From assembly GCA_040225955.1 (NCBI GenBank), contig JBECUL010000013.1:1-46364 (forward strand): 46,364 nt of DNA, given 5' to 3'. Positions 8,559-38,755 of the stretch are shown piece by piece (position 1 is the first letter of the stretch; each line of letters begins with the position of its first letter). The stretch is from Candidatus Asgardarchaeum abyssi. Its GTDB lineage: Archaea > Asgardarchaeota > Asgardarchaeia > Asgardarchaeales > Asgardarchaeaceae. The translations under genes were made by a program, and so were the position numbers. The notes under the pieces are model-generated. The model was not told where the DNA came from, ran no database searches, and saw only the letters and a list, made by a program, of their open reading frames with translations.

Positions 8559-11105
8559 ATGCCAAGCAAACTTAAGTGTCCATTCTGTGATGGAGAAATA
8601 AAATTTGAAATCTTAGAAAAAGGGAAGTGGAGAATTTATTGTAATAAGTGCGGAAAGGAAGCCTTTACTCCTAAATTTTTTACAGGAGATTATATGGATG
8701 CTTATCACTATTTCCTATCAGTTTATAGAGAAGAGATAGATAAACGGAAGATCGAAAAAGCACCGTATGCTAACATTGACTGGAGAAAATTACCCGATGT
8801 ATTAAAAGCAATACTCATGGATAAAGTTTATACTCTTGTTTATTATAAGTCCTATGACGAGCAAGAAGGAGTTTTCAGTAAACCTATTGATGAACTTGAT
8901 TTACACCCAGCTATAAAAAAATATCTTAAAGCATCTGGAATAGAAAGATTATTTTCTTTTCAAGAAAGGGCAATAAAAACCATATTACGTGGCGAAAATA
9001 CTGTAATTGTTGCGCCTACAGGTAATGGCAAGACTGAAGCATTTCTAATACCTATTGCGCAGAAAATATTAACTGAGAAACCAGATTGGGGCGCATTAGC
9101 TTATCCTACTAGCAGCGCAAAGGCTTTATTTATATATCCTACGAAAGCTCTTGCTCGAGATCAGCTTGATAAATTTAAAAAATTAGAAAGATTTAGCGGA
9201 ATACGATTTGAAATATTTGATGGGGATACTCCCTCTCATAAAAGGAAGGAGATTCTTTCAAATCCACCAGACATCTTAATTACAAACCCAGATATGATAC
9301 ATGTTCATCTTATGAAAAGAAATCCGTTTAAGAAAATAATAAGAGACATAAAATTCGTAGTCCTTGATGAAATTCATCAATATAAGGGAGCATTTGGTTC
9401 GAATGTATACTTTATTTTAAGGAGATTAGAAAGGATAGCTGGCGATTTTCAAATTATTGGCGCATCAGCCACCATTGCCAATCCGAAAGAGTTTGGTGAG
9501 CAGTTATTTGGAAGAAGCGTAACAGTAGTAGAATGCGAAAGAGGTCGGAGAGGAAGAATACACTTTTTGATGCTATACCCACAAACAATTAGTGCCAATT
9601 TGATGATAGGCAGAGTTGCCAAATTACTTACTCAACATGGCTATAAGGTCTTAATTTTTGCTAATTCTCACAAAACTGCAGAACTAATTAATTTGATTTT
9701 AAGACGATTATCTGTAATTAGTTATGTTCATAGGGCTGGACTTCCAGAAAAAATGAGACATCGAATTGAGGATGCATTTAAGAGGGGCGAAATAAAAGCA
9801 CTGGTAGCTACACCTACCTTGGAGCTAGGTGTAGATATAGGCGATCTGGATGCTGTAGTCTCAGTAATTATAGGCATAACTAGATTAATTCAAAGAATTG
9901 GTAGAGCTGGGCGAAGAGGACAAGAAAGTATTGCAATATTAGCATTACGAAACGATGATCCCATAAGTACTTATTATTTAGAAAAACCAGAAGATTATTT
10001 TAAAAATATAGATCCTGCATTTGTAGATCCAGGTAATGAGGTGGTTGCATACCATCAAATATTAGCAGCATCTATTGATTCACCTTTGAAGAAGGATGAA
10101 TTCCAGAATTTTAAAGACATAGTCAATAATTTAATTGCAGAGAATCTTTTAATCGTAAGAAGAAATCGTTTACATCCCTCTTACACAAAAGCAAAAAAGA
10201 TACTAGCAAAATATAATTTACGTGGCGTGGGGGATATCGTAAAAATAACAGATGGAAAGCGTATCCTGGGTTTTAGAAATATGCCAATGGCCGCACGTGA
10301 GTTACATCCCGGAGCTGTATATATTCATGCTGGCACTCTTTATAAATCAATTGATTTCAAGTTTAATGGAAAAGAGGGCTATGCTCTTGTCGAAAAGCTC
10401 CCTACAGACTATCCATATAAGACAGATGCTCTCAGAGCATCATTTCCAGAAATTCTTGAAATAAAAGAAAGAAAAACAGTTTTTGGTACGGAAGTCATTT
10501 ATGGAAAATTAAGAATAACTGAAGAAGTCTATGGTTACGTGGTAACTGAAACATTTACCGAAAAGAAAGTTGAAACTAAAATTTTAGATGAACCTATACG
10601 ATATACCTTTGACACAATGGGTTTCGTCTTTACTGCGCCATCACCAACTAAAACAGTAGACGAATATGCAAAAAAGCCTGATTTACCCGAAGGCTTGCTA
10701 AGTGAGGAGGATTTATTAGCAGGAGCTTTTCATGCTGTGGAGCATGTTCTTATTGAGGGTAGCCCTATGTTAACTGGTGGTGGCTCTTCTGAAATAGGTG
10801 GTATCTCATTAGGGACCTCTGGAATGATAGTTATTTATGATGGTACTCCTGGAGGAAGTGGGCTATCAAAGCTACTCTTCAATAGACTTGATATGGCAAT
10901 TAAGAACTCATTATCAATTTTAAAATCATGCAAATGTAAAAGGATTGACGGATGCCCAGCATGCACATATAGCTATCAATGTGGGAATAATAATAGACCA
11001 TTATTTAAAGTAGGAGCCATTGAAGCGCTGGAGAAACTTTTAAAGGAGAAAGAAAAAATATCGGTAAGACATGAACTATTTACTCTTTTTAAGCCAATTG
11101 TTTAA
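8559..11105 (+). CDS. SF2 DEAH-box helicase with C-terminal DUF1998 Zn-binding domain (Hrq1/MrfA/SftH-like)
   Basis: PTGNGKT, YPTKALARDQ, DGDT, TNPDM, DEIH, SAT, ATPTLELGVDIG, QRIGRAGR; C-terminal CKC..DGCPAC...QCGNNN; N-terminal CPFC..CNKC Zn ribbon. Confidence 0.9.
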   Translation: MPSKLKCPFCDGEIKFEILEKGKWRIYCNKCGKEAFTPKFFTGDYMDAYHYFLSVYREEIDKRKIEKAPYANIDWRKLPDVLKAILMDKVYTLVYYKSYDEQEGVFSKPIDELDLHPAIKKYLKASGIERLFSFQERAIKTILRGENTVIVAPTGNGKTEAFLIPIAQKILTEKPDWGALAYPTSSAKALFIYPTKALARDQLDKFKKLERFSGIRFEIFDGDTPSHKRKEILSNPPDILITNPDMIHVHLMKRNPFKKIIRDIKFVVLDEIHQYKGAFGSNVYFILRRLERIAGDFQIIGASATIANPKEFGEQLFGRSVTVVECERGRRGRIHFLMLYPQTISANLMIGRVAKLLTQHGYKVLIFANSHKTAELINLILRRLSVISYVHRAGLPEKMRHRIEDAFKRGEIKALVATPTLELGVDIGDLDAVVSVIIGITRLIQRIGRAGRRGQESIAILALRNDDPISTYYLEKPEDYFKNIDPAFVDPGNEVVAYHQILAASIDSPLKKDEFQNFKDIVNNLIAENLLIVRRNRLHPSYTKAKKILAKYNLRGVGDIVKITDGKRILGFRNMPMAARELHPGAVYIHAGTLYKSIDFKFNGKEGYALVEKLPTDYPYKTDALRASFPEILEIKERKTVFGTEVIYGKLRITEEVYGYVVTETFTEKKVETKILDEPIRYTFDTMGFVFTAPSPTKTVDEYAKKPDLPEGLLSEEDLLAGAFHAVEHVLIEGSPMLTGGGSSEIGGISLGTSGMIVIYDGTPGGSGLSKLLFNRLDMAIKNSLSILKSCKCKRIDGCPACTYSYQCGNNNRPLFKVGAIEALEKLLKEKEKISVRHELFTLFKPIV

Positions 11106-11798: not shown

Positions 11799-13093
11799 CA
11801 GAGATCTTGCCATAAGTAGAGGCGAGAGAGCGGGCGAAAAATTTTTTGTCGGCTCCGTACTCTCTCACCGATGAACCATGTCAAGATATACAATACACGT
11901 ACTCCACATTTTAAAAATTGCATTTCACCCTTATATACTTAGAGCTTCGAAACAAATCGCACCAATCTTCGTAAAAAAGAGAAATAGAGGCACTCCAAAT
12001 TATGCTAAGGCAATCGACGTGATGACCGCAGTAATCGAAGGACATAGCCGCATCTCAAATATAATCATTGTTTCTCTCCGATCCAGAATAAAATCTATCA
12101 TAACTCCGCAACCTACTTTAAAATGCTATATCGCTTGGATTGTCGGGATAACTTCGTACCATGGTATGAAGCGTATAAACTATCCACTGTCTCATTGCTT
12201 CGAGAAGCTGGATACGAATTTATAAAGCCATATGTTGCCAATCGTAGTGGCATCGTAAGCTTCGACTTATCCGCACTGGCTGTCTGGGGAAACAACTTCG
12301 AATTTGCAGATCGCGGCTATGGAATTGATCCAAAACAGCGTGGGTACCAACCTGCAGCGATAGCCATAGAAGTTGGTGATTTGACTCTTTGGACGTACTC
12401 TAAACTCGTGCCAGGATACATTACCTCGCAACTTATGTTTGACACTCTATTTTCCTCTCTTAAGAGGCTTGTGGAGGAGACCAACTTTGTGCCAAAGGTG
12501 GTGCTTCTCGACGCAGGTTTTCATAGCATTGAACATATCATGAAACTAGACAAACACTTTAGGTTTATTATGGCAGCACCAAAGATTCAGCGATATACGA
12601 ATCTAAAATACGAACAAGTTACGTCTACAATTTCGTATAGTGACATCATGATAAAAGGGCGCAGGTTTAGAGTCATTAAGAAGCGAACGAAGAACGAGAA
12701 AGGGAAGTACGAGGACCACTATTTTGTAACTAACATCTTCGACATTTCGGTGAAACGTGTGTTAGAGCTTTATAGGAAGCGCTGGGTTATCGAAAATTCG
12801 TTATTTAATGAGATAAAGAATGGATTCGAATTGCACATTCCGAGTAGCAATTTTGTAGTGAGTGCGTTATACATTGAGCTTGTGAAATTTGCGTACAATA
12901 TTTTTCGATTGGCGATGTTGAGGGTATTTGAGGCAATGGGTGTTCGTATACGTGGTGTTAGGCGATTTAGAGAACACATGCAGTATGCGATCACGATGGC
13001 TATAGTGTCGTCCCAAGGACGGTTAAAAGACACCTAGTGATTGGGCGAAAAAATTAAGGGGGTGATGCGCCAAAAGTTACGGCAAGATCTCTG
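11799..13093 (+). mobile_element. insertion sequence, ISH3-like (IS4/IS701-related DDE), 1295 bp
   Basis: Terminal IRs CAGAGATCTTGCC (13 bp perfect, 17/19 extended) at 11799 and 13093; 7-bp direct repeat TCTTCCA at 11792-11798 and 13094-13100; higher GC than flanks. Confidence 0.9.
11878..13037 (+). pseudogene. DDE transposase split into two overlapping frames (11878-12225 and 12123-13037, -1 shift)
   Basis: Second frame has VSFDLS, VLLDAGF, YFVTN and LYRKRWVIENSLFNEIK (Y-2-R-3-E-K type motif). Programmed versus mutational shift is unresolved. Confidence 0.75.
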
Positions 13094-13375
13094 TCTTCCA
13101 ATTATATTATTTATGCTGAGATACTTTTGCTTGTGTGCAATTTCTTATTCTTGGAAGTAATAAAATAAAAAATATATGTGATAATTTTTAAATGAAATAT
13201 ATAGTTTAGCGCTAAACTAGTTGATGTTTCATTAGTTATTAATCAGAACGTTAAGTTGTTAATTAATTGGATATAAATAAAAACTATTGTTACTAATATG
13301 TATTTATAAACTTGTAGGAATCTAATGTATATATAACATAATTCTCTAAAAATAATTTGAATATAAGAAAGGACG

Positions 13376-15997
13376 GTGAATTTATTGCTGGGGGAACGAG
13401 AACTAAGGAGACTTCTCTCCGATATTACGCTAATATCAAATAAATTTAAATTAAGTGATAAAACTAAAGTTGATATTAAAGAGCTTGATGAACTAATTAG
13501 AGGATATTTCGAATTATCATCAGAGATTGAAAAGTTAGGCATTTTTAGCTTTATGAAAAAGAAGAAGCTAAAAGAGAAACAGCAAAAAATATTAGAAACA
13601 ATCTCAGCGACAATTCCAACTACATTAAGAAGCATATTAAATGATGTAAAACCTTTTATAAATAGGCTAAATGAGCTTTATGAAAAAGCATCTCCTATCG
13701 TTAAGGATAAAGTAAAATATACGCCGATGACTCTATCTACTTTACCAAGTGATCCAATAGCACTCGTAGAATATATTCATAATGTTGTTAATACAGCTGT
13801 TGAATCTCAGAATCAACTTAGAAATGCTCTTTTGAGCATTGTCCAAGACTTATGGAAATCAAATAATTTGAAGTTTAATATCTATAGAAAGTATATAGCA
13901 CTGGATGCTGATAAAGTTAGATTGTCATCTTCTGAAATTGTTGAAAGTGAGGATATTGATACTCTTATAGATTTTTACTATAAGTTGAAGAAAGAGGAAG
14001 AATTCTTAGATGCTCTAAAAATGCAAGTAAGAATCTCTTTCCAAGAGGTTCTTAAATCAAGGCTGGAGAACCTTGAAGCCTACTTAGGAATGATAGAAGG
14101 ATTGGGAATAATCATTAAATCGTCAATTAAATCTAAAATAGAATCTCTGAGAAATTCTCTTAAGGAACCTCGTGAATTATCATCATTACAAAGTCTTGAG
14201 AAGGAAATAAATGAATTAGAAGAGGTAATTAAAGACGATTTACGCAGAGAAATTATAAAATTAAAAAACGAAACTATTTCTGCCACAGAAAAAATTCCTA
14301 ATCTTCCACCAGAGCCCGAAATTATTGGTGAATCAATTGACAAATTGATAGAAGGTTATCAAGCTATTCGTACTTGGCATGTAAGAGTTGTTAGTACAAT
14401 TATCATTCAAATAAAAGACCTTCTTAAGGATGCTGACGCTGCATTAGGAAAATTATCACCTGATTTAGCTGATCCGATTAAGAGAAAAATAGAAAATATT
14501 AGGAATAGGGCAAATAAGGTTACTAAGCTCGAAGAAGCTGTTTCACTCTATTGGGAAACTGTAAAACAAATAGAAAATTGGAAAGAATTGCTTTTTAAAG
14601 AAATACAAAAACGTATGGGTGAATACAATAGAACACTTCAGATGATTAAAGAAGTCATAGAACGCGTACCATCTTTCTTAGTTATCTCTTTACCAGAGGA
14701 TATATCAGGGGCTTCTCTTTCTTTTCTTGCTAATGTTTTATATACAATCCGTACAAAAACTGAACAAAGAGATAAAGTCTTTAAAGACGCAATAATTGGC
14801 GAACTTAATAGTTTTAAGAGTATAATATTAAGTGTGCCTGAGGAGTATCAAAAGCAATTCGAAAATGCAATAAAGTTAATAGATTCAACAATAGAAAAGA
14901 TCAGAGCAACAACTAATACAGAAGAAATTAGGTTGCACTTCATAAGAACCAGAGCAGAATTAGAAAAAGAAATAGGCGAAATACTTCAAGGTGTAAGGGA
15001 TAAGCAAGTTTTAAAAATTCGACTTATGCTTGCAAAAATGCCTGGTGCTCCAGACGTCTCTGACGCAATAAATCAAATAATGAGCTTACCTATTGATATA
15101 ACAAAACCAGAAGAGTACATAATAAAAATAAATAGTACAATGCACAACCAGATCATTAACAAGCTTAAAGATTTCTTGATGAAGGAAGTAAGTGATTATC
15201 TTGATATATTAAACATATTAAAGGAATTTAACCTAGATTTCTCTAAAGAAAGAGAAAAACTTCTTGAGATAAGTAAAAAACTTGCTGATGCTAAAGATGC
15301 GGAGGGGCTTGGTGACTTAGGAAGAGAGTTTAGAGTGACGATTACAAATAAAGATTTCATTAATGTTATTAAAAATTGGATTGAAACTATGACAACAAGC
15401 ATGTCTAATGCATTATCTGAATTAGGAAGAGGAGTTACTGAGGCTGAAGGAATCGCAACACTTATTAGAGAAAGTAAAACTGCGGATCCAACAAATCCTG
15501 CTCAATTGGTATCATTGGTTAAGAAATTAGTTAAAGTTTGGGAGCTAATAAGAGAATATATAATAAAAATAGAAGATATTGAGTATTCTAAGTTCTTAGA
15601 AGCTGCAAAAAGTTACAATGTCTATGAGACAGTTATGAAAATATATGAAATACATAAAGATGAATTCAGTGAGAAAATATTTCCCTTACTTACTCTTGAA
15701 CAGAAAAGGGAGATGATAACTAAAATTAAGACACCAGAACTTGTAGAAATACTACAAGACATTAGAAAACTAGAAAAAGACTTTCTGGAAAAATTAAAGG
15801 AAATTAGTGTTTGGCATAAAGCAGTTAGAATTCTTATGGCTGGGTTCGATTTTTCTGCGCCTGAGTCGGAGCTGAAAAATAGAGTGAAAGAAATTAAGAA
15901 GAATATCAGAAAAATGTATAAGCGAGAGGATATAATTTCATATTTAGAATGGGTTGTAGAGTATTTAGCTAGTAGAGGAGGGCAAGTAAGTGAGTAG
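13376..15997 (+). CDS. large all-alpha coiled-coil/helical-bundle repeat protein, first gene of tubulin-like operon
   Basis: 873 aa of E/K/L/I-rich amphipathic helices punctuated by Pro-rich linkers; no Walker motifs or TM; stop overlaps the GTG of the next gene. Start may be TTG 13385. Confidence 0.75.
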   Translation: MNLLLGERELRRLLSDITLISNKFKLSDKTKVDIKELDELIRGYFELSSEIEKLGIFSFMKKKKLKEKQQKILETISATIPTTLRSILNDVKPFINRLNELYEKASPIVKDKVKYTPMTLSTLPSDPIALVEYIHNVVNTAVESQNQLRNALLSIVQDLWKSNNLKFNIYRKYIALDADKVRLSSSEIVESEDIDTLIDFYYKLKKEEEFLDALKMQVRISFQEVLKSRLENLEAYLGMIEGLGIIIKSSIKSKIESLRNSLKEPRELSSLQSLEKEINELEEVIKDDLRREIIKLKNETISATEKIPNLPPEPEIIGESIDKLIEGYQAIRTWHVRVVSTIIIQIKDLLKDADAALGKLSPDLADPIKRKIENIRNRANKVTKLEEAVSLYWETVKQIENWKELLFKEIQKRMGEYNRTLQMIKEVIERVPSFLVISLPEDISGASLSFLANVLYTIRTKTEQRDKVFKDAIIGELNSFKSIILSVPEEYQKQFENAIKLIDSTIEKIRATTNTEEIRLHFIRTRAELEKEIGEILQGVRDKQVLKIRLMLAKMPGAPDVSDAINQIMSLPIDITKPEEYIIKINSTMHNQIINKLKDFLMKEVSDYLDILNILKEFNLDFSKEREKLLEISKKLADAKDAEGLGDLGREFRVTITNKDFINVIKNWIETMTTSMSNALSELGRGVTEAEGIATLIRESKTADPTNPAQLVSLVKKLVKVWELIREYIIKIEDIEYSKFLEAAKSYNVYETVMKIYEIHKDEFSEKIFPLLTLEQKREMITKIKTPELVEILQDIRKLEKDFLEKLKEISVWHKAVRILMAGFDFSAPESELKNRVKEIKKNIRKMYKREDIISYLEWVVEYLASRGGQVSE

Positions 15998-17312
15998 CTC
16001 TGGTACTGCTGATATTTTTGCAATAGGCATAGGAGAATGTGGCAGTAATTTGCTAGCAAGTTACTTAGCTCAGAAAAGATATGGAGAGACGATTCCAAGG
16101 TTAAAAGGATATTTACTTATGAATACAGATAAAGCAGATATAGCAAAAGCTAGGGAAAAATACAAAATTCCTAAGGACAACACATTGGTATATGGGGAAA
16201 CTGAATTTGGAGTTGGTGGAAAATTTGTTGAAGGCTATAAAGCCGTTATTCAGTCTAAAAATGCTATTTTGTCTCAGTTGAGAGATCTTGGGTATGAAGG
16301 GATCAGTGGTTTCATTATTTTTACATCACTAGGCGGCGGTACAGGATGTGGTGGGACTCCGGCTTTAATTAAAATATTAAGAGAACGATTTATGAAAGAG
16401 GAGCAAAGAAGAGTATATATTTACGTTGTTGGTGTTTTACCGTTTAAAGGGCAAAGTTCTGAAGCTTTAAATGCCACTTGGGCTCTTTCAAGACTAGTAA
16501 AAGCACATATTGAAGAAGAAGGCGCAGATCTAATAATACTTCTTAGCAATAGGACAATGCTTGATAGACTTTTACAGTTCAAGCGTGGAGTTGTAACCGA
16601 TTTACTGGCATCAAAGTTGGGATGGGATATTTCACAACTAACTGAAATAGAAGTGCCATCAACAATAGATGGTGCTACCGAATATGCTAAAAAAATTGAG
16701 GAGTCATTTGTAGATCTAATTAATCCTTTGGCCGTTAAAGTTATAGAATTTATGCTAAGACCTGCTGTTTATGAAACAGGGAAAGAAGTATTTCCAACGA
16801 CAGACTTAGCTGACTATGCGAGGAAGTTAGATCCTATTGTAGTTCCTGCGTTATATGAGGATGTTGCTTTTATACCCAATGCTGGAGACATTGAAGAACA
16901 AATTAGATTTATAATAAGGCATACAATTGAAGAACTTAGTCTAGTTAGAGTTAATAGAAATCCTCAAGCCACAAGTGCATATTATATATTATTTGGGCCA
17001 AAGGATGTTGCGAAAATCGATTATGACCCCTATATAAAAAGAGCACTATCCGATTATCTTGCTCCAGGAGCATCAATAATTCCATCAATCGTTCAGTATC
17101 AGAATGCAACATCACTTGATCTATTAGTTTTATTAGGATTGCCTAAATTGGATGAACTAAAAGATCTAATAAATGAAGCATATATGTTGATTCAGCTACA
17201 TAGCGGTAGTCCTCTTAAGGAGAAATGGTTTGAAAGAACTAAAGGAGTACCAAAAGAAAAAATAATAGAGGCAGTCGAAGACCTGAAAACCTTACTAGGA
17301 ATACAAATATAA
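15990..17312 (+). CDS. tubulin/FtsZ superfamily GTPase (divergent, CetZ/tubulin-like rather than FtsZ)
   Basis: T1 IGIGECGSN, T2 MNTD, T3 GVGG, T4 SLGGGTGCG (16332-16352), VLPF, NAT, LSN, T7 TTDLADY. Confidence 0.9.
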   Translation: MSSSGTADIFAIGIGECGSNLLASYLAQKRYGETIPRLKGYLLMNTDKADIAKAREKYKIPKDNTLVYGETEFGVGGKFVEGYKAVIQSKNAILSQLRDLGYEGISGFIIFTSLGGGTGCGGTPALIKILRERFMKEEQRRVYIYVVGVLPFKGQSSEALNATWALSRLVKAHIEEEGADLIILLSNRTMLDRLLQFKRGVVTDLLASKLGWDISQLTEIEVPSTIDGATEYAKKIEESFVDLINPLAVKVIEFMLRPAVYETGKEVFPTTDLADYARKLDPIVVPALYEDVAFIPNAGDIEEQIRFIIRHTIEELSLVRVNRNPQATSAYYILFGPKDVAKIDYDPYIKRALSDYLAPGASIIPSIVQYQNATSLDLLVLLGLPKLDELKDLINEAYMLIQLHSGSPLKEKWFERTKGVPKEKIIEAVEDLKTLLGIQI

Positions 17313-17327
17313 TCATCTTTTTTATTA

Positions 17328-18218
17328 TTGTTGGATGGTGTCTCAATGAAAAAGGAAGATCTCAAAATTCAAACCATATATAAAATCATGGATTTTCAAC
17401 TTCAACTTCTTATGAATATTATAAATGAAGATATATTTGACAAATTGGATGAAGATAAAAGAAATACCCTTAGAATGAATGCTCTCGGTGCAATTGAATA
17501 CATAAATTTGCTTTTAACAAATTTTCCAAATTTTAAGAATTTAGAGAGTTTGGTGTCGATCAAAGAAAGGTTATTTGAAGTTATTAAGAAGTTAAAAGGC
17601 AAGCCTCCAATCGAGGAGGAAATGATCGTAGAAAGCAAGCAAGCTGACCCATGGGGGATAATTGAATCTACGAAGAATTTGATTAATAACTATTCAAAAT
17701 CATTAGATGTTCTTATACCTCTATTCTTTTTTGGTATTATAGAGGAATTACATAATAAAGATATACCGCCAGAAGCTATAAGAATACCGTCAATTACACT
17801 TAGAAACATTATTAATAAACTTCTAAGAGAGGCTCCCTATTCTCAATTGTTACACAAAATATACGAAACAAGCAACATAATGCTGATCTCTGAAGAAAAT
17901 GCAAAAATAGTCGATCTGGTTGAATCATATAGTAGGAAGTTTGCAACAAAGACTTCAGGGTCGGAATATAGTTCCTTGATAATAGATGAAGCGAAAATGT
18001 TTCTGGAAGCATTTAATTGGGGCGGATCTAAAACAGAAAAAAGAATTTTCCAACTCATTTATGAACATGCTTTAGAACATATTAAAAAGGCTGAGAAAGA
18101 AAAGGATGCTCTTCGTAGAGCAATTCATGCAGCAACAGCAATATTGCTATGCAGAATAAGTGCGGCTCTTACCCAATTACCTCGTATAGATAGCAGACTA
18201 AGAAAAATGAAACCCTAA
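17328..18218 (+). CDS. hypothetical all-alpha protein, third gene of tubulin-like operon
   Basis: Long ORF with host-like composition 15 bp after the tubulin-like gene; likely ATG at 17346; no recognisable motif. Confidence 0.7.
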   Translation: MLDGVSMKKEDLKIQTIYKIMDFQLQLLMNIINEDIFDKLDEDKRNTLRMNALGAIEYINLLLTNFPNFKNLESLVSIKERLFEVIKKLKGKPPIEEEMIVESKQADPWGIIESTKNLINNYSKSLDVLIPLFFFGIIEELHNKDIPPEAIRIPSITLRNIINKLLREAPYSQLLHKIYETSNIMLISEENAKIVDLVESYSRKFATKTSGSEYSSLIIDEAKMFLEAFNWGGSKTEKRIFQLIYEHALEHIKKAEKEKDALRRAIHAATAILLCRISAALTQLPRIDSRLRKMKP

Positions 18219-18226
18219 TTATTTGT

Positions 18227-19099
18227 TCATTTTTCACTTTTTAGTTTTTTAATCTCATCTTCTAAATCCCAAGCTTTGTTTCTAAATCTCTTAGCAGTAG
18301 CTTTTGGAAGATCATTTAAATAAGATTCTACTCTTTCAAGAATCTCAAGAGCAAGATCATACAACTTAGCATTTTTATAAGCTTCAGCTGCCATTAAATA
18401 ATATTCACACGCTTTTTTAAAATTTCCAGCAACTTCGAAAATTTCACCAGCAGTTGATGCTGCATCACCTATTGATGATGGGTCACCTAGTTCTTCAGCG
18501 AGTTTTAAAGCCTTTTTAAGGTAAGCTTCTGCATTTTTTATATTTTCCATATCCAGATAGATATTCGCCATATCTTGGTATAAACTTATTAGAGCCTCGC
18601 TTATGCCCTCAGCAGAATATATTTTTTCTGCCTTTTTAAGGATCTTAATGGCATCCTCATCTCTTTCAAGTTCGCTTAGAATAAGCCCATATGTATAAAG
18701 AGCATCAGCATGAGCTATTGAGTCATTTACCTTTTCAAATAACTTTATAGCCTTTTCTATGTATTTTAATGCCTCTTCTGGTTTGCTTAAATTAAGTAGA
18801 TTTACAGCAAGATTGTATGCTGCATTGGCTAGATCTTCAACCTTGTTGAGACTTTGATAAATAGAATAAGCCTCTTTTATTAAACTAATAGATTCCTCAT
18901 AGAACTCAAAATTTGTTAAAAGTGTACCTAATTCAACGGCAATGTCCGCGTATAATAATTTATTACTTTCATCATCTTTTAAAATTTTTAATATATCATG
19001 ATATATGGTCACAGCCTCATTTATTCTATTTTCTTGGACCATTTTCCTAGCGCGTTCTATTTTCTCTTTAATGTTTTCAACCATTAAAATATCCCTCAC
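18227..19099 (-). CDS. TPR-repeat protein (about 40-aa repeats, alpha-SNAP/TPR_12-like)
   Basis: Repeats of A..Y.LG.......EEA..Y.EKA..L with about 40-residue periodicity across the protein. Confidence 0.85.
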   Translation of the reverse strand: MRDILMVENIKEKIERARKMVQENRINEAVTIYHDILKILKDDESNKLLYADIAVELGTLLTNFEFYEESISLIKEAYSIYQSLNKVEDLANAAYNLAVNLLNLSKPEEALKYIEKAIKLFEKVNDSIAHADALYTYGLILSELERDEDAIKILKKAEKIYSAEGISEALISLYQDMANIYLDMENIKNAEAYLKKALKLAEELGDPSSIGDAASTAGEIFEVAGNFKKACEYYLMAAEAYKNAKLYDLALEILERVESYLNDLPKATAKRFRNKAWDLEDEIKKLKSEK

Positions 19100-19780
19100 T
19101 CAATAAATATGAGATGTCCAATTCTCTATAATTTTTAATGTCTCACTATTAAGTTTCTGAATATACAAAAACTTTCCACTACCAACTTTTGCTAATTTTT
19201 CCATAAATAAATTTTGAGGTTTCTTGGAGCTACTAACTTGAATTGATGACAGACTTATTTTTTCATCATGCACAAACTTTATCGGTGATATCCCACAGTT
19301 CCACAATCCATCTGATACTAAAATAAAATGGTAAGAATCATAAACCTCTACTATTTTCTTAGCTTTTAAGATCCCTAAGTAAATATTAGAGCCTCCGAAT
19401 GCTCTTTTCGAGAGCTCTATTAAAGCTAGGGATAATGTTTTCCTAATAGAAGGTTTTCCCCCAGATAATGAAATGAATACTTTTCCACCACTAAATGTAA
19501 TATTATCTGCTATATGATTGAACCAAACAACAGCGACCATTACATTTCTTTCACTTAATAACTCTTTTATTGTCTGAAGAAGAATTCCAGCGCAGGCTAA
19601 TTTTGAAATCTTCATACCAGGAGATATGTAATTTAAGAAGGACAAAAATTTCTCATGAGATGTTTTAGGAGATATTTTAAAAAACGTAAGAAAACTATCA
19701 TCTTCTAATAAAATTTCTTCTTTCTCCATGCTCTTTGATATGTCCAATATAAAAACTATTTTCATTAAATTACTATTCAT
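19100..19780 (-). CDS. von Willebrand factor A domain protein
   Basis: IVFILDISKSM (DxSxS MIDAS), VVWF, GGSNI, ILVSDG, MEKLA..GSGKF. Confidence 0.8.
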   Translation of the reverse strand: MNSNLMKIVFILDISKSMEKEEILLEDDSFLTFFKISPKTSHEKFLSFLNYISPGMKISKLACAGILLQTIKELLSERNVMVAVVWFNHIADNITFSGGKVFISLSGGKPSIRKTLSLALIELSKRAFGGSNIYLGILKAKKIVEVYDSYHFILVSDGLWNCGISPIKFVHDEKISLSSIQVSSSKKPQNLFMEKLAKVGSGKFLYIQKLNSETLKIIENWTSHIY

Positions 19781-20993
19781 GGCTTATTCCTCGCAATATG
19801 CATTCCGATATGTCTAAAGAAATTATTTCCAATACTCTATCCACAAACTCTAAAAGATTACCACTATACTGAAAGAGTTCACCACTAGTTATTTCTGAAA
19901 GCTCGCTATATAATTCAATAAGGTCTTTGTTTTCATAAGAGGTCAAAATTGCAATTATAGGAATTTTTCTATCAATTCTCTCTCTCTTTATTACATCTAT
20001 CGGGTGCACTCCGAAAATTTCGGAATCGTCAGTGACAATCAGCAATAAGTCTGGAGATTTCTCCTTAAAGTTTCTTAGCATCTCAAAATATTTATATAAA
20101 GCATTACCTATCTGATTTACTCCTTTACCTATATTTATTGTTGAGAAAAAGCTTGTTAATGAACTTAAAGAGTCCTTTATAACATTTAGAGAATATGAAA
20201 TTCCAAATTTCTCCATATTATGTTGCGGTCTTGCACTGAAAAAAATTCCTTGTTCTTGAAATATAAATAAGTTAAATTTGCTAAATAGTGAACTGTTAAG
20301 TAACTTTCTTAGTAATGTTAATGTAAAAATATATGAAAATAATAATCTTGAGATTGTTTTTTCAAGAGATATAGAAATAGGAAAATCCTGAATGTTTTCT
20401 TTGATATATTCTATATCCTCTTCACTTAAGGGGACATCCATATGATTCATAGAGTTATGTGCACTTATAATTACACCTATTGTTAAATCATGCAGATCTA
20501 TCATGGAGTAATTAATCTTAGAGTATTCATATGATATTGCACCAACACTTTCACCAAGTCCTTTGATATCTATGAGAATTGCTCTATCTCCAAGATTTAA
20601 AAATAATCCTGAGCTTGAAATAAAAATATCATCACCAAGCAAGTTAAAAATATCAATTAGCTCTGATTTTTTATTTTTTTGGAAAATTTTTACATGTATT
20701 TCATCTAATTTATTTACTTCACCTAAATAATGCATCAAAGTCACTCTATCACGCTTTCCAAAACGATACTTACTAGTAAGGTCATTAACTATTACCTTAT
20801 CTGGAGGAATATTATCGTCTATAAAAGCCCTTGCAAGGAACGTTCTCTTTTTTATACTCATAAGTAAAATATCACCAGGATATATATAATATTTATCTGC
20901 AATAACCTTAGATAATTTTATCCATCCTGGCCATACGTCTTTAGAACTCTCGAGTTGAAATGTTTCCTTTATATGCTCCCACATGATCATCAC
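19773..20993 (-). CDS. CDC48/NSF N-terminal double-psi-barrel-like domain fused to a degenerate vWA domain
   Basis: N-terminal KDV..GWIKLS...IYPGDILL...KRTFLARA.IDD.IP.DKVIVN...DRVTL pattern; C-terminal IGVIISAHNSM...LLIVTD...LSEITSGELF with MIDAS lost; no Walker A. Confidence 0.55.
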   Translation of the reverse strand: MMIMWEHIKETFQLESSKDVWPGWIKLSKVIADKYYIYPGDILLMSIKKRTFLARAFIDDNIPPDKVIVNDLTSKYRFGKRDRVTLMHYLGEVNKLDEIHVKIFQKNKKSELIDIFNLLGDDIFISSSGLFLNLGDRAILIDIKGLGESVGAISYEYSKINYSMIDLHDLTIGVIISAHNSMNHMDVPLSEEDIEYIKENIQDFPISISLEKTISRLLFSYIFTLTLLRKLLNSSLFSKFNLFIFQEQGIFFSARPQHNMEKFGISYSLNVIKDSLSSLTSFFSTINIGKGVNQIGNALYKYFEMLRNFKEKSPDLLLIVTDDSEIFGVHPIDVIKRERIDRKIPIIAILTSYENKDLIELYSELSEITSGELFQYSGNLLEFVDRVLEIISLDISECILRGISHE

Positions 20994-21028: not shown

Positions 21029-22564
21029 ATGCTTATTAGAGTATCTCTTCAATACATGGTGGTGAAGGTGAATTTACAACATCTAAAGATGCAATATAGC
21101 GAAGTAATCAAGGAAATACTAATGAATGTTGATATCTTAGATGGGATAGTTGTTGGGTTTAACGTTAATATTGATGCTATTAAGAGAGTGGATTGCAATT
21201 TTTTAGAGAGCCTACCAAAACCTAAAAAGATAAGGCATATCACGAGAAGAACGATTAAAAATATCGACGACTTAGTTTCAGGTCTCTATTACTGTATGAT
21301 GCATGGCATTGGTGATGAATGGATTATAAAAGAAAAGAGACTCTTCGATTGGATCAATAAGAATATTAGCAAAGATTCTCAACAAATTGGTGGACAAGGG
21401 GGAAACATGGCAAATGTTGCAGCAGCTCTTGGTGTTAAAAAAGTTATTGTGAATCTACCAATTCGTAATAAAGAGATAGCAGCTTTTTTTATAAATGATA
21501 ATGTGAAAGTCCCATATAGAATTAATAATAAAATAGAATTAATTAGCGCAAGAAAAATCACAAACAGCGATGTACCACCAATCCATTGGATTTTTGAATT
21601 TCATAGCGGATTAAAAATAAAAATCGATAAATTAAGTTTTACGGTTCCCAAGTCAAACCGTTTCATCGCCACTTATGATCCCTATATCGCTACATGTCAA
21701 CTTCTATATGAGTACAAAAAGCTACCAAGAAATATAATTAGCCAGATAGATAGCTTTATAGTAGGTGGTTTTCATTTAATTAGAACTGATTTTTTAAAGA
21801 ATCCAAAAAGAAAATTTGTAGAAATCAAGACGCTTTTTCAACGCTGGCGAAAATATAACAATAATGCTCTAATATACTTGGAATTTGGCCCATCTTCAAA
21901 TACAGAAATCTTTAGAATGATAAATGATTTTCTATCTAAAGAAATAGATATTTTAGGCATTGGTGACGATGATTTAGCAGAAATTTTGATCGCTCTAGGT
22001 AAAGAGAAAATGGCTCAAATGATAAAAAAGGATAAATCTCCTATTATTATCTTTGATAGCGTATTTGAGATACTTAAAAAATCTCAATTTAATGAGATTT
22101 TATTGCATTGCGATGATTTCGCTATAAATATAATGAAAAAAGATAATGAAAGTAAAAATAACTTCGTAGAAATATTAGAGAGAAGAAAAAAATCGATTAT
22201 GCTCGGACATCTTGTTTGCGCTACACGTGCCTTAATAGGGAAATTTCCAACAATTGATGATATAAAATATTCTTTTCTGCATGAGAAAATATTTTTAGAC
22301 AAGACGAAAGTTGATAGATGCAAAGAATTATGCAAAATTATCACTAAGAATTATAATTTTAGTGTTGATGACTTTATGTTTTTTGGATTTGATAACGAAA
22401 CAGATAAAAAAATAATAGGCGTGTGTGTACCGGCGCTGACATCAAAAGATATAAAACTAACAGTGGGCTTAGGTGATTCTTTTGCTGTATCCTTTGGGAT
22501 CGCAGAAGGAGTACAAAAAAAATTAACAAAGGGAATTACTTACAGAAACGTGGATTATCAATAA
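21029..22564 (+). CDS. ADP-dependent sugar kinase (ADP-GK/PFK family), probably glucokinase
   Basis: GFNVNIDA, GGQGGNMAN, IHWIFEF, NRFI, TVGLGD; true start probably somewhat downstream. Confidence 0.85.
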   Translation: MLIRVSLQYMVVKVNLQHLKMQYSEVIKEILMNVDILDGIVVGFNVNIDAIKRVDCNFLESLPKPKKIRHITRRTIKNIDDLVSGLYYCMMHGIGDEWIIKEKRLFDWINKNISKDSQQIGGQGGNMANVAAALGVKKVIVNLPIRNKEIAAFFINDNVKVPYRINNKIELISARKITNSDVPPIHWIFEFHSGLKIKIDKLSFTVPKSNRFIATYDPYIATCQLLYEYKKLPRNIISQIDSFIVGGFHLIRTDFLKNPKRKFVEIKTLFQRWRKYNNNALIYLEFGPSSNTEIFRMINDFLSKEIDILGIGDDDLAEILIALGKEKMAQMIKKDKSPIIIFDSVFEILKKSQFNEILLHCDDFAINIMKKDNESKNNFVEILERRKKSIMLGHLVCATRALIGKFPTIDDIKYSFLHEKIFLDKTKVDRCKELCKIITKNYNFSVDDFMFFGFDNETDKKIIGVCVPALTSKDIKLTVGLGDSFAVSFGIAEGVQKKLTKGITYRNVDYQ

Positions 22565-36636: not shown

Positions 36637-37625
36637 GTCAAGAATCGAAATGGGATTATGATAAAACTAGAAAATCATTATTAAAAAAACCAGTTAGGGA
36701 TATTAATCTTTCATCAGTCATAACACTTTATGATTTATACCTTCAACTAAAAAACACGGGTGGATTCACAGCAACAAAAGTAGCTGAAGCTATTGACATT
36801 CTTTCGGAAATGATTATGAAGAAAGATGTTACAAGATTTTTATCATTTCCTGCTTGTATAATTGCAACAGGAACTAGAGGGGTAATTAAAGAACTGATAA
36901 AAAGAAAAATGTTTGACGTTGTAATAACAACAACTGGAACTTTAGATCATGATTTGGCTAGGATTTGGCAAAAATACTTTCATGGATCTTTTATGATGGA
37001 TGATATTATGCTTCGGAAGTTGGAAATTAATAGGCTTGGAAATGTTCTTGTGCCTAATGAAAGTTATGGAATTATTTTAGAAAAGAAGCTCCAGCCTATA
37101 CTTTCAAATATATATGAAAGTGGATTGCGTGAATTGTCAACGTATGAATTAATATGGGAAATTGGAAAGAGAATAGATAACGAGGAATCAATAATATACT
37201 GGGCTACAAAAAATAAAATCCCCATAATTGTTCCAGGAATTACTGATGGAGCAGTTGGGTATCAGATATGGTTGTTCTATCAAACACATAAAGATTTCAA
37301 AATTAATATTTTAAAAGATGAAGATTTATTAAATGATATCATTTGGGAATCGAAAAGCACGGGGGCTCTTATAATAGGTGGTGGAATATCCAAACATCAT
37401 GCAATTTGGTGGAACCAATTCAAAGAAGGTTTGAAATATGCCGTCTACATAACAACTGCTCCAGAATGGGATGGCAGTCTCTCAGGGGCTAGAACGCGAG
37501 AGGCAATCTCTTGGGGGAAACTTAGTGAAAGTGCTAAACATGTAACAGTTGAAGGAGATGCTACAATCTTACTTCCCATTATCATTAGTGCTCTATTAAG
37601 CAAAATGGAGATGAATAAATCATGA
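36633..37625 (+). CDS. dys: deoxyhypusine synthase
   Basis: GGFTA, SFPACIIATGTRG, TTTGTLDHD, INRLGNV, GITDGAVG, GGGISKH, DGSLSGA...EAISWGK, EGDAT. Confidence 0.95.
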   Translation: MSQESKWDYDKTRKSLLKKPVRDINLSSVITLYDLYLQLKNTGGFTATKVAEAIDILSEMIMKKDVTRFLSFPACIIATGTRGVIKELIKRKMFDVVITTTGTLDHDLARIWQKYFHGSFMMDDIMLRKLEINRLGNVLVPNESYGIILEKKLQPILSNIYESGLRELSTYELIWEIGKRIDNEESIIYWATKNKIPIIVPGITDGAVGYQIWLFYQTHKDFKINILKDEDLLNDIIWESKSTGALIIGGGISKHHAIWWNQFKEGLKYAVYITTAPEWDGSLSGARTREAISWGKLSESAKHVTVEGDATILLPIIISALLSKMEMNKS

Positions 37626-38755
37626 TATATGCTATATGGTTAATTAATAGGTCTGGAACTCCAATTTTATCCAGAACATATAAAGGGTTTAATGTAGATC
37701 CTGTACTTTTTTCGGGACTTATTACTGCAATTCTTGGTTTTGCTAGAGAGATAAGTGGCCAAGAGATAAGTGAAATCTCTATGGGGAACTTTAAATTATT
37801 GGTTCACACATATATAGAGAGTCCTATACTAGTCCTTGCCGTGAGTAGCGAAGAAGATAAAACAAAATATATCGATTTTGTTGAAGACATACGTAGAAGA
37901 ATTATTAGAAGATATGGATTGTTCGAAGAGCCTAATATTAATGCCATTCCTGTAATTATTAGAGATCTTGACTCAATAGTATCCCAATATGGCTTCGTAA
38001 TAGCTGGTGAAGAAGCAGTAACTGATATTTTATTAGATGAAAATGCTCAGAAATTGCTTTTACATTTAATTTTGAATAAAGGACTCCGTATATTGCCGAA
38101 AATTGAACTTACTGGAGATTTGATTATTTCATATCCTGAGTTGAAATCTATGGTCCCTATAAATCCGTCTGAGCTTAAATTCTTATTGGAAACACTAACA
38201 AAAAATGGATATCTTATTCGAGAAACCTACGCATCAATACTTCAGTGTCCGCTCTGTAAGACATCACATGTAATTACTGTTGCTACATGTCCTCATTGTG
38301 GTAGTTCTTCTATAGTTAAGAAAATTTTCATTGAACACTTTAGGTGCGGATATATAGGTCCTAAAACATTATTCACTTCTAGTAAAGCTGAAAAGCTTGT
38401 ATGTCCATCTTGCAAGCGAGAGTTAGAAGTTGCAGACTTTAGAGAGTTTGAGAGTTTTTACTGTGAGCATTGCAATTCTCTTGTAAATGAACCTGCGTAT
38501 AAAATCTTTTGTTTAAAATGCAATAAATACTTTAATTTGAACGAAACTAACATTTTTACCATTTCTTCATATTCTCTTAATGAAAAAGCTAGAGAGTTTA
38601 TTGAAAAGAAGATTCTAAAACAGCTTGTAAGACCAGTTCCTAAGCAAAAAATTAGCAAATTTCATGAACGTTTCATGCATTTTAAAAAACTATCTGAATT
38701 AAGATCGAGGGTAAGGCCATTCAAGAAAACTAATAAAAAGAAAATATTGCTATAA
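37622..38755 (+). CDS. longin-like domain fused to a multi-Zn-ribbon (TackOD1-like) domain
   Basis: MIYAIWLINRSGTPILSR...DPVLFSGLITAILGFAREI; then YPEL...CPLC...CPHCGS...IEH..CGY.G...CPSC...CEHC...CLKC. Confidence 0.7.
   Translation: MIYAIWLINRSGTPILSRTYKGFNVDPVLFSGLITAILGFAREISGQEISEISMGNFKLLVHTYIESPILVLAVSSEEDKTKYIDFVEDIRRRIIRRYGLFEEPNINAIPVIIRDLDSIVSQYGFVIAGEEAVTDILLDENAQKLLLHLILNKGLRILPKIELTGDLIISYPELKSMVPINPSELKFLLETLTKNGYLIRETYASILQCPLCKTSHVITVATCPHCGSSSIVKKIFIEHFRCGYIGPKTLFTSSKAEKLVCPSCKRELEVADFREFESFYCEHCNSLVNEPAYKIFCLKCNKYFNLNETNIFTISSYSLNEKAREFIEKKILKQLVRPVPKQKISKFHERFMHFKKLSELRSRVRPFKKTNKKKILL

Follow-up and report, generated by a model that had tools for sequence, protein, structure and literature searches.

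The stretch of DNA analysed here, 46,364 nucleotides from Candidatus Asgardarchaeum abyssi (contig JBECUL010000013.1, referred to at its full length as the window), carries a gene for a tubulin-superfamily protein of the Asgard archaeal family Asg.Tub and, on either side of it, the genes for two all-helical proteins designated UP and DN. Together the three genes form an operon, UP-AsgTub-DN, whose conservation extends across the Asgard lineages sampled. The reading we favour, and hold to be probable, is that Asg.Tub represents an Asgard-specific branch of the superfamily, forming GTP-dependent filaments with UP and DN as partners, and that it is neither a CetZ proper nor a tubulin. Family membership, the fold, the conservation of motifs and operon and the exclusion from CetZ carry this reading; from these we go on to infer that Asg.Tub binds GTP and polymerises, what its partners do and that helix H12 offers a docking surface.

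Family identity and distribution

By its sequence, the protein is a member of a large published family and not a one-off case of the mosaic that the original prediction, made from the DNA letters, described. The name Asg.Tub was given by Santana-Molina et al. (2023; PMC9871819) to a 'novel CetZ-like group' of Asgardarchaeota, sampled there by four sequences from Heimdall- and Thor-type genomes, with unknown coiled-coil genes as neighbours and with a position described as 'unstable, branching with tubulins or with CetZ'; the idea of an intermediate between CetZ and tubulin is thus already published for this family, in that unstable form. The C-terminal blocks of the published alignment, i.e. 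FVELVNPLA, PTTDLADYARKLDPVVVPALY, LLGLPK and LHSG..LK..WF.R.KG, are the blocks of the window protein, and the published member OLS26264.1 from Heimdall LC_3 was recovered in the present searches (as P0054) with the same tail and 51% identity over 99% of the length. In the literature, no study of the function or structure of Asg.Tub was found.

A search of 5.8 billion proteins yielded more than 150 full-length relatives with 47-98% identity. Most of them are nameless, and those with a named source are all labelled as Asgard archaea (Thor-, Loki-/Prometh-, Hod-, Heimdall- and Hermod-archaeota as well as 'Asgardarchaeia'). When 1.84 billion representatives were scanned exhaustively with HMMER, no more than three proteins came out below 1e-30, and the matches next in rank were confined to the N-terminal domain. 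Among 400 Asgard genomes, the family profile detected Asg.Tub in 124, covering 26 of the 85 genera; it is near-universal in several families (75/86 genomes in f31, 20/22 in f9, 15/19 in f12, 5/5 in f28 and 4/4 in f4) and absent from two others (0/135 in f20 and 0/31 in f6). True tubulins, recognised by the Tubulin_C domain, are rare in comparison: only 8 of these genomes, from families f8, f19, f26 and f27, have one. The two were not seen together (Asg.Tub in none of the 8 tubulin genomes, Tubulin_C in none of the 124 Asg.Tub genomes), which counts as an observation only, the sample being small and made up of related genomes. CetZ_C was detected by Pfam in none of the 400 genomes, the Haloferax control being positive. 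The genome of the window itself holds only three PF00091 genes, namely two of the FtsZ type and Asg.Tub; since the former two can account for division, Asg.Tub is free for another role.

Gene and conserved motifs

The open reading frame and all the motifs quoted in the original prediction were found in their places. The features of the gene, with residues numbered from the GTG start, are as follows:

15990-17312, + strand: gene for the Asg.Tub-family tubulin-superfamily GTPase, 440 amino acids, GTG start
15977-15982, + strand: Shine-Dalgarno-like GGAGGG, read directly from the sequence, 8 nucleotides 5' of the GTG and within the end of UP
16032-16049, + strand: T1 loop GECGSN, residues 15-20, phosphate binding, with invariant G15, E16, G18 and N20
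16326-16355, + strand: T4 tubulin signature SLGGGTGCGG, residues 113-122, with invariant glycines
16614-16676, + strand: disordered variable insertion between H6 and H7, residues 209-229, modelled with a predicted local distance difference test (pLDDT) score below 50 and falling in alignment columns of variable length
16794-16814, + strand: T7 loop and start of H8, PTTDLAD, residues 269-275, with invariant P269, T271, D272 and D275

The start of the gene overlaps the stop of UP by 8 nucleotides. Further motifs are NTD (residues 45-47), GVGG (74-77), LNATWAL (160-166), PTTDLADYARKLDP (269-282) and the C-terminal KWFERTKGVPKEKIIEAVEDLKTL (residues 412-435, nucleotides 17223-17294). LNATWAL, which had been counted among the tubulin-like traits, turned out to be non-discriminating because its asparagine is common to CetZ and tubulin.

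Conservation was followed in 30 diverse family members for invariant positions and in 119 full-length members for motif counts. In addition to the T1 and T7/H8 positions listed above, the invariant positions include G115-G117, G119 and G121 in T4, the T5/H5 block Q155-S157-E158...N161, N187 in T6 and, in the tail, W413, F414, K418, G419 and L435. GxGECGSN is present in 110 of the 119 full-length members, GGGTGCGG (T4) in 111 and P[T/N/V]TDxxD in 117, and WF..(S/A)KG is near-universal. The replacement of the usual T7 asparagine by threonine, noticed already in the window protein, holds for 114 of the 119; the T7 loop is paired by hhalign with that of CetZ, and its acidic residues D272 and D275 are predicted to be catalytic. 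The long insertion between LSN and helix H7 proved to be a spacer varying from 41 to 60 residues, and the acidic tail is indeed lacking, as the protein ends 4 residues past the last helix and the tails of the family are short (median 10 residues) with a net charge near 0. Taken as a whole, the constraint on these motifs would be the pattern expected for an active polymerisation-dependent GTPase.

Domain and profile comparisons

Residues 9-192 match the Tubulin/FtsZ GTPase domain of Pfam (PF00091) with 67.4 bits, the cut-off being 33 (E 2.7e-18), i.e. far above chance level, and the only other Pfam match at E<=0.1 is a sub-threshold one to Tubulin_2. At the same limit there was no match to FtsZ_C, Tubulin_C (PF03953) or CetZ_C (PF21011), and the NCBIfam equivalog for FtsZ (TIGR00065) scored 34 bits, compared with its cut-off of 295.2.

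The core of the protein is CetZ-like in sequence. The family profile was aligned by hhalign with 15 true CetZs, verified as such by their CetZ_C scores, at 99.5% probability (E 7e-23) over 339 columns from S1 to H11, the match extending through the intermediate domain to residue 401. With 15 true tubulins (Odin, Atub and eukaryotic alpha and beta), the corresponding figures are 97%, E 6e-11 and only 113 columns of the N-terminal domain. The tail of 57 residues, taken by itself, is unmatched by the profile of CetZ (P 0.18, one column) and aligns exactly on HWY..EGMEE.EF.EARE of tubulin, the segment of H11'-H12, so that a weak tubulin-like signal may be ascribed to it. The term 'mosaic' is fair as a description of the characters of the protein and is silent on a chimeric origin.

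Evolutionary position

The phylogeny was calculated from 49 rows and 370 columns with IQ-TREE (LG+C20+F+G4, with posterior mean site frequencies) and rooted on FtsZ; the C-terminal halves could be aligned only with uncertainty. The rows cover 10 Asg.Tub proteins and 2 sister sequences, 9 tubulins, 13 CetZ and CetZ-like proteins, 5 FtsZs, among them both FtsZ proteins of the window's genome, two unnamed archaeal groups and 2 others, with gamma-tubulin, artubulins, Halo.Tub and TubZ outside the set. Asg.Tub forms a clade of its own (99/99; 100/99 together with the sisters P0123 and P0130), which is separated from FtsZ at 100/99, excluded from the CetZ clade (99/97; the CetZ proteins plus four of the six CetZ-like rows) and positioned outside the clade of true tubulins (100/100). 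The true tubulins, Asg.Tub with its sisters and the two unnamed groups, designated 'Kor' and 'GAGEGG', are gathered in one clade at 96/96. In this maximum-likelihood tree, a check of the kind that the original prediction had proposed, Asg.Tub was thus nested in neither CetZ nor FtsZ.

An alternative that we regard as unlikely is that Asg.Tub is a fast-evolving Asgard CetZ, sister to or nested in the known ones and acting in cell shape like CetZ1 of Haloferax, its affinity to tubulin being an artefact of long branches or alignment and its last helices being specific to the lineage. The CetZ-like core and the label given to the group in the literature suit this explanation. Contrary to it, CetZ_C is not matched by Asg.Tub, whereas it is recovered at 1e-9 to 1e-21 even in divergent CetZ-like proteins (true CetZs scoring 1e-44 to 1e-54), the tail is without a counterpart in CetZ and the gene context is unlike that of CetZ. 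The trees, too, keep Asg.Tub apart from CetZ: forcing the two together costs 20.2 log-likelihood units and is rejected by the approximately unbiased (AU) test (p 0.014), and when the tubulins were removed, Asg.Tub, 'Kor' and 'GAGEGG' still formed a clade (100/98) sister to CetZ (100/97), so that the exclusion is not due to attraction to tubulin.

Tree, AU test and domain searches together support the view that Asg.Tub is neither FtsZ nor CetZ proper nor a true tubulin, and to this extent the original prediction of a lineage between CetZ and tubulin is partly supported. In the present trees, Asg.Tub branches with the tubulins and not with CetZ; the order inside the 96/96 clade is a polytomy, and 'between CetZ and tubulin' therefore does not denote a resolved stem position. 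In the tree of fig. 6 in PMC9871819, Asg.Tub has a branch length of 2.0, is joined to Halo.Tub at 62% support and lies outside the group of artubulins and tubulins (100%).

Concerning the groups around Asg.Tub in the tree, P0123 and P0130 (L020:7001-8374) are metagenomic proteins with a T1 loop GIGEGGxN and represent the closest relatives outside the family (E 3.5e-35). Both are without a UP gene, P0123 being located downstream of SMC-ScpA and pyrimidine-synthesis genes; as no large gene precedes it, the cassette is not extended to the sister sequence. 'Kor' (P0140, P0135 and P0132) includes proteins from metagenome-assembled genomes of Korarchaeota/Thermoproteota, and 'GAGEGG' (P0151, P0153, P0144, P0172 and P0200) is marked by the T1 loop of that sequence and by NLE.YL C-termini. 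Neither group matches CetZ_C or Tubulin_C, and their identification with Halo.Tub or artubulins was rejected, since the C-terminal signatures match neither.

Structure model and C-terminal helices

An AlphaFold2 model calculated from the family alignment (pLDDT 84, predicted template modelling score 0.86), in which disorder is seen only at residues 1-5 and 209-229, has the two-domain fold of the superfamily, with a Rossmann-like GTPase domain, the core helix H7 and the intermediate domain. Strand S10 is followed by three helices (residues 388-403, 408-418 and 422-436), as in tubulin:

17151-17198, + strand: helix H11, residues 388-403 of the model, common to CetZ and tubulin
17211-17297, + strand: helices H11' (residues 408-418) and H12 (422-436) of the model, with the motif WF..KG...E.L..A..DL..L, a predicted tubulin-type C-terminal extension

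In the comparison with known structures, CetZs and tubulins are tied by score. The best match was CetZ 3zid (35.6, with 327 residues aligned, covering model residues 6-412), followed by OdinTubulin (35.1-35.4, 361-364 aligned, to residue 439), CetZ2 (34.5, 328 aligned, to 406), CetZ1 (34.0, 324 aligned, to 402), BtubB (33.8, 353 aligned, to 438) and eukaryotic tubulins (about 33, 352-360 aligned, to 437-440). The difference is in the extent: the alignments with CetZ stop at residues 402-412, whereas the chains of tubulin type, which alone cover the last two helices, reach residues 437-440 or so, aligning about 30 residues more, i.e. the length of these two helices. Of the H12-like C-terminus claimed in the original prediction, the helices are predicted by the model as well, and the resemblance in sequence is weak. 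The equivalence of the pair with H11'-H12 of tubulin is supported, but not proven, by these alignments, which were compared by score and extent. By eye, the C-terminus of an artubulin, RWGLTTEEFKQSLMDVVHQF (PMC9871819, supplement 34), also follows a pattern W..G..E-F/L...D-V/L...F like that of H11'-H12 in Asg.Tub and tubulin.

Another reading sees in Asg.Tub a proto-tubulin, the closest surviving relative of the tubulin stem, with H11'-H12 homologous to the surface that binds microtubule-associated proteins (MAPs) and motors, and with UP and DN as primitive filament-associated proteins; we consider this very improbable. The family does share the 96/96 clade with true tubulins, its tail falls at the exact position of H11'-H12, tubulin structures follow the model to its end, and Asg.Tub is limited to Asgard archaea and missing from the eight genomes with true tubulins. 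On the other hand, the order of Asg.Tub, tubulins, 'Kor' and 'GAGEGG' is the polytomy mentioned above, Tubulin_C is not matched, the profile match to tubulin is restricted to the N-terminal domain, and in the published tree (PMC9871819) it is the artubulins, not Asg.Tub, that pair with tubulins at 100%; the non-overlap of the genomes would be expected by chance at about 5% even with relatedness ignored.

The operon and its partner proteins

The two genes adjoining Asg.Tub in the window are:

13376-15997, + strand: UP, open reading frame for an all-helical partner protein of 873 amino acids, directly upstream of Asg.Tub
17328-18218, + strand: DN, open reading frame for an all-helical partner protein of 296 amino acids, the start being more likely the ATG at 17346

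The arrangement was surveyed at 25 loci, which represent 10 or more Asgard families; five of these loci are the window or were identified by protein identity, and the genome search supplied the other 20. An ortholog of UP (659-1185 amino acids, plus one fragment of 287) is found directly upstream on the same strand at all 25 loci and an ortholog of DN (293-380 amino acids) directly downstream at 23, the genes being usually separated by gaps of 0-50 nucleotides or overlapping. The two loci without DN, L006 and L025, both carry a shorter second paralog (441-448 amino acids).

No Pfam or NCBIfam family was found for either UP or DN. The true start of UP may be the TTG at 13385, and the ESM Atlas holds the protein from residue 4, its matches there being only its own orthologs from Thorarchaeota; DN had no usable match in it. 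For both proteins the homology at the surveyed loci is secure. In BLASTP, UP matches a Thor-type ortholog over its full length (1e-29) and, further, that of locus L007 (2e-64) and the Heimdall-type one (2e-11 and 6e-9); a patch of the form hydrophobic-F/L-x-K-K/R-K/R-x-L near residues 55-65 is conserved in 23 orthologs. DN consists of an N-terminal segment of three helices, a linker and a compact all-alpha C-terminal domain of about 190 residues (model pLDDT 87), over which the homology extends (1e-31 and 2e-16) and which is marked by D.WG, P.FW.E, LLTEAP.ARLLQ, F.WGG..LEKRI and a terminal MKP. The model had no convincing match among the folds in the PDB. Prediction of a complex between Asg.Tub and residues 100-296 of DN gave scores of 0.00, 0.32 and 0.26 (the mark being 0.32), which speak neither for nor against binding.

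In a marine-sediment metatranscriptome (X1), six contigs of 210-284 nucleotides with 90-99% identity fall between window positions 13874 and 17680, covering parts of UP, Asg.Tub and DN and the junction between the first two. This points to a close relative in marine sediment in which the operon may be transcribed; as X1 holds only 7% of the sampled words, the uncovered parts being uninformative, comes without information on strand or level and may include carried-over DNA, the evidence for transcription is weak.

The second paralog, Asg.Tub2, occurs as an extra copy in at least eight genomes of family f9. Its cassette (L006:309-6099 and L025:3420-9178) consists of a gene for about 311 amino acids, UP2 and Asg.Tub2, in this order. 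The product of the first gene, 60% identical between the two loci, was considered as a DN, but it is not detectably one (E>0.1 with the DN hidden Markov model). Flanking the cassette are genes for Arf/Gtr1_RagA-like small GTPases (298/250 and 725/739 amino acids), with 56-72% identity between the loci.

Proposed function

Based on the above results, the following mechanism may be proposed. Asg.Tub would bind GTP through its intact loops T1-T6 and polymerise head-to-tail into protofilaments, the T7 loop (T270-T271-D272...D275) of one subunit completing the GTPase site of the next, so that hydrolysis would be dependent on polymerisation, as in FtsZ, CetZ and tubulin. The protein would be co-transcribed and translationally coupled with the Asgard-specific alpha-helical UP (about 900-1185 amino acids) and DN (about 300-380), serving as adaptors or regulators of the filament that dock on the body or the outer surface of the polymer. 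Asg.Tub itself has neither a C-terminal tail nor a membrane-targeting peptide, and it possesses the predicted H11'-H12 pair; the partners are therefore probably adaptors or regulators. In UP, the basic patch that is conserved may be a site of contact with the membrane or with a partner. In terms of evolution, Asg.Tub would be found among the archaeal lineages that share a clade with the tubulins, sister to CetZ, with the CetZ-like core having been kept.

Several points weigh against this proposal. No report of GTP binding, hydrolysis or polymerisation by any member of Asg.Tub was found in the literature, the T7 asparagine is retained in only 3 of the 119 full-length members, and synteny is the single line of evidence for the roles of UP and DN. 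In terms of profiles, Asg.Tub is much nearer to CetZ than to tubulin, and two papers, one of them PMC9871819, class its clade as CetZ-related. The match of the tail to the tubulin profile is weak (P 2e-4, probability only 46%), and a HMMER profile of the tail found no tubulin, CetZ or FtsZ among the PDB sequences at E<=10 (the top match, HWFDKSKGV in the small subunit of [Fe]-hydrogenase, being a chance one). As for the trees, the clade that includes the tubulins joins several long branches (0.9-2.0) in an inner order that is a polytomy, and the AU p-value is only moderately strong, the test carrying the long-branch bias of the model.

A further step, which we consider doubtful, would be that Asg.Tub filaments recruit dedicated filament-associated proteins through a tubulin-homologous H11'-H12 outer surface, the three genes forming a self-contained cytoskeletal module specific to Asgard archaea. 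Asg.Tub would then be among the closest living relatives of the pre-tubulin ancestor, replaced by true tubulins in the few Asgard lineages that possess these. If this were true, nothing known in prokaryotes would come closer to the relationship between tubulin and MAPs than UP-AsgTub-DN, as an analogue or possibly as a homologue.

The origin of tubulin from FtsZ/CetZ-like ancestors is a long-standing question in eukaryogenesis. Asg.Tub, common in Asgard archaea and strongly conserved, with a core like that of CetZ and a predicted C-terminal helical pair of tubulin type, bears on when the MAP/motor-binding surface of tubulin appeared; together with a confident structure model, clear predicted catalytic residues and two co-encoded partners without a known fold, this makes the family a candidate, open to test, for a new cytoskeletal system in archaea.

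Other genes of the window

The operon is preceded by a gene for a transposase of the DDE_Tnp_1 family (12123-13037; E 1e-12), ending about 340 nucleotides upstream; the sequence between the two is AT-rich and includes TATA-like boxes (13300-13340). From the other side, three genes on the minus strand (18227-20993) converge on it, ending 8 nucleotides from the stop of DN; they encode a protein like tetratricopeptide-repeat and SNAP proteins (TPR_12 5e-28, SNAP 2e-9), a protein with a weak match to VWA_2 and one of 405 amino acids without a Pfam match, and they are not kept beside the operon at loci L004 and L005. Elsewhere in the window there are two DEAD helicases, one with the MrfA Zn-binding domain (8559-11105) and the other with DUF5814 (43042-45642), a protein with a TackOD1 domain (37622-38755) and an ADP-dependent phosphofructokinase/glucokinase (21029-22564).

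Comparison with known systems

The window protein shares with the Asg.Tub members of PMC9871819 the family, the unstable position between CetZ and tubulin and the coiled-coil neighbours. It comes from another Asgard lineage, to which 'Candidatus Asgardarchaeia' is the nearest named relative, and that study is without the definition of the UP-AsgTub-DN operon, a structure model, the H11'-H12 pair and the distribution over 400 genomes. New in the present analysis are thus the conserved three-gene module, the predicted pair of helices, the failed CetZ_C test and the distribution data.

With FtsZ1 and FtsZ2, Asg.Tub has in common the PF00091 GTPase domain and the asparagine at the end of T1; it differs from them in the lack of a match to FtsZ_C, in remaining below the cut-off of TIGR00065 and in its separate place in the tree. 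In comparison with CetZ (CetZ1 and CetZ2 of Haloferax volcanii, 4b46 and 4b45, and the protein from Methanosaeta, 3zid), it has two further helices past the ends of the CetZ structures, GECGSN instead of GQAGGK in T1, the insertion of 41-60 residues between H6 and H7 and a different gene context, in addition to its position outside the CetZ clade and the missing CetZ_C. True tubulins, i.e. OdinTubulin (7evb, 7evl), AtubA/B (9f6t), BtubA/B and the eukaryotic alpha, beta and gamma forms, have NxDxxE in T7 where Asg.Tub has TTDxxD; the latter is without a Tubulin_C match or an acidic tail and is encoded by a single gene and not by an A/B pair.

Finally, the CetZ-like protein of non-canonical type from the Halo_adaptin system (Makarova et al. 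2024; PMC10936438), or Halo.Tub, resembles Asg.Tub in lying outside the main CetZ branch and in belonging to a conserved multi-gene system of uncharacterised function, and in the published tree Halo.Tub and Asg.Tub are sisters with weak support (62%). The two differ in the C-terminal signature, which is LWG..WNP..P.LE in Halo.Tub, in the phylum of the host and in the partners, those of Halo.Tub being adaptin-like and Ig-like proteins.

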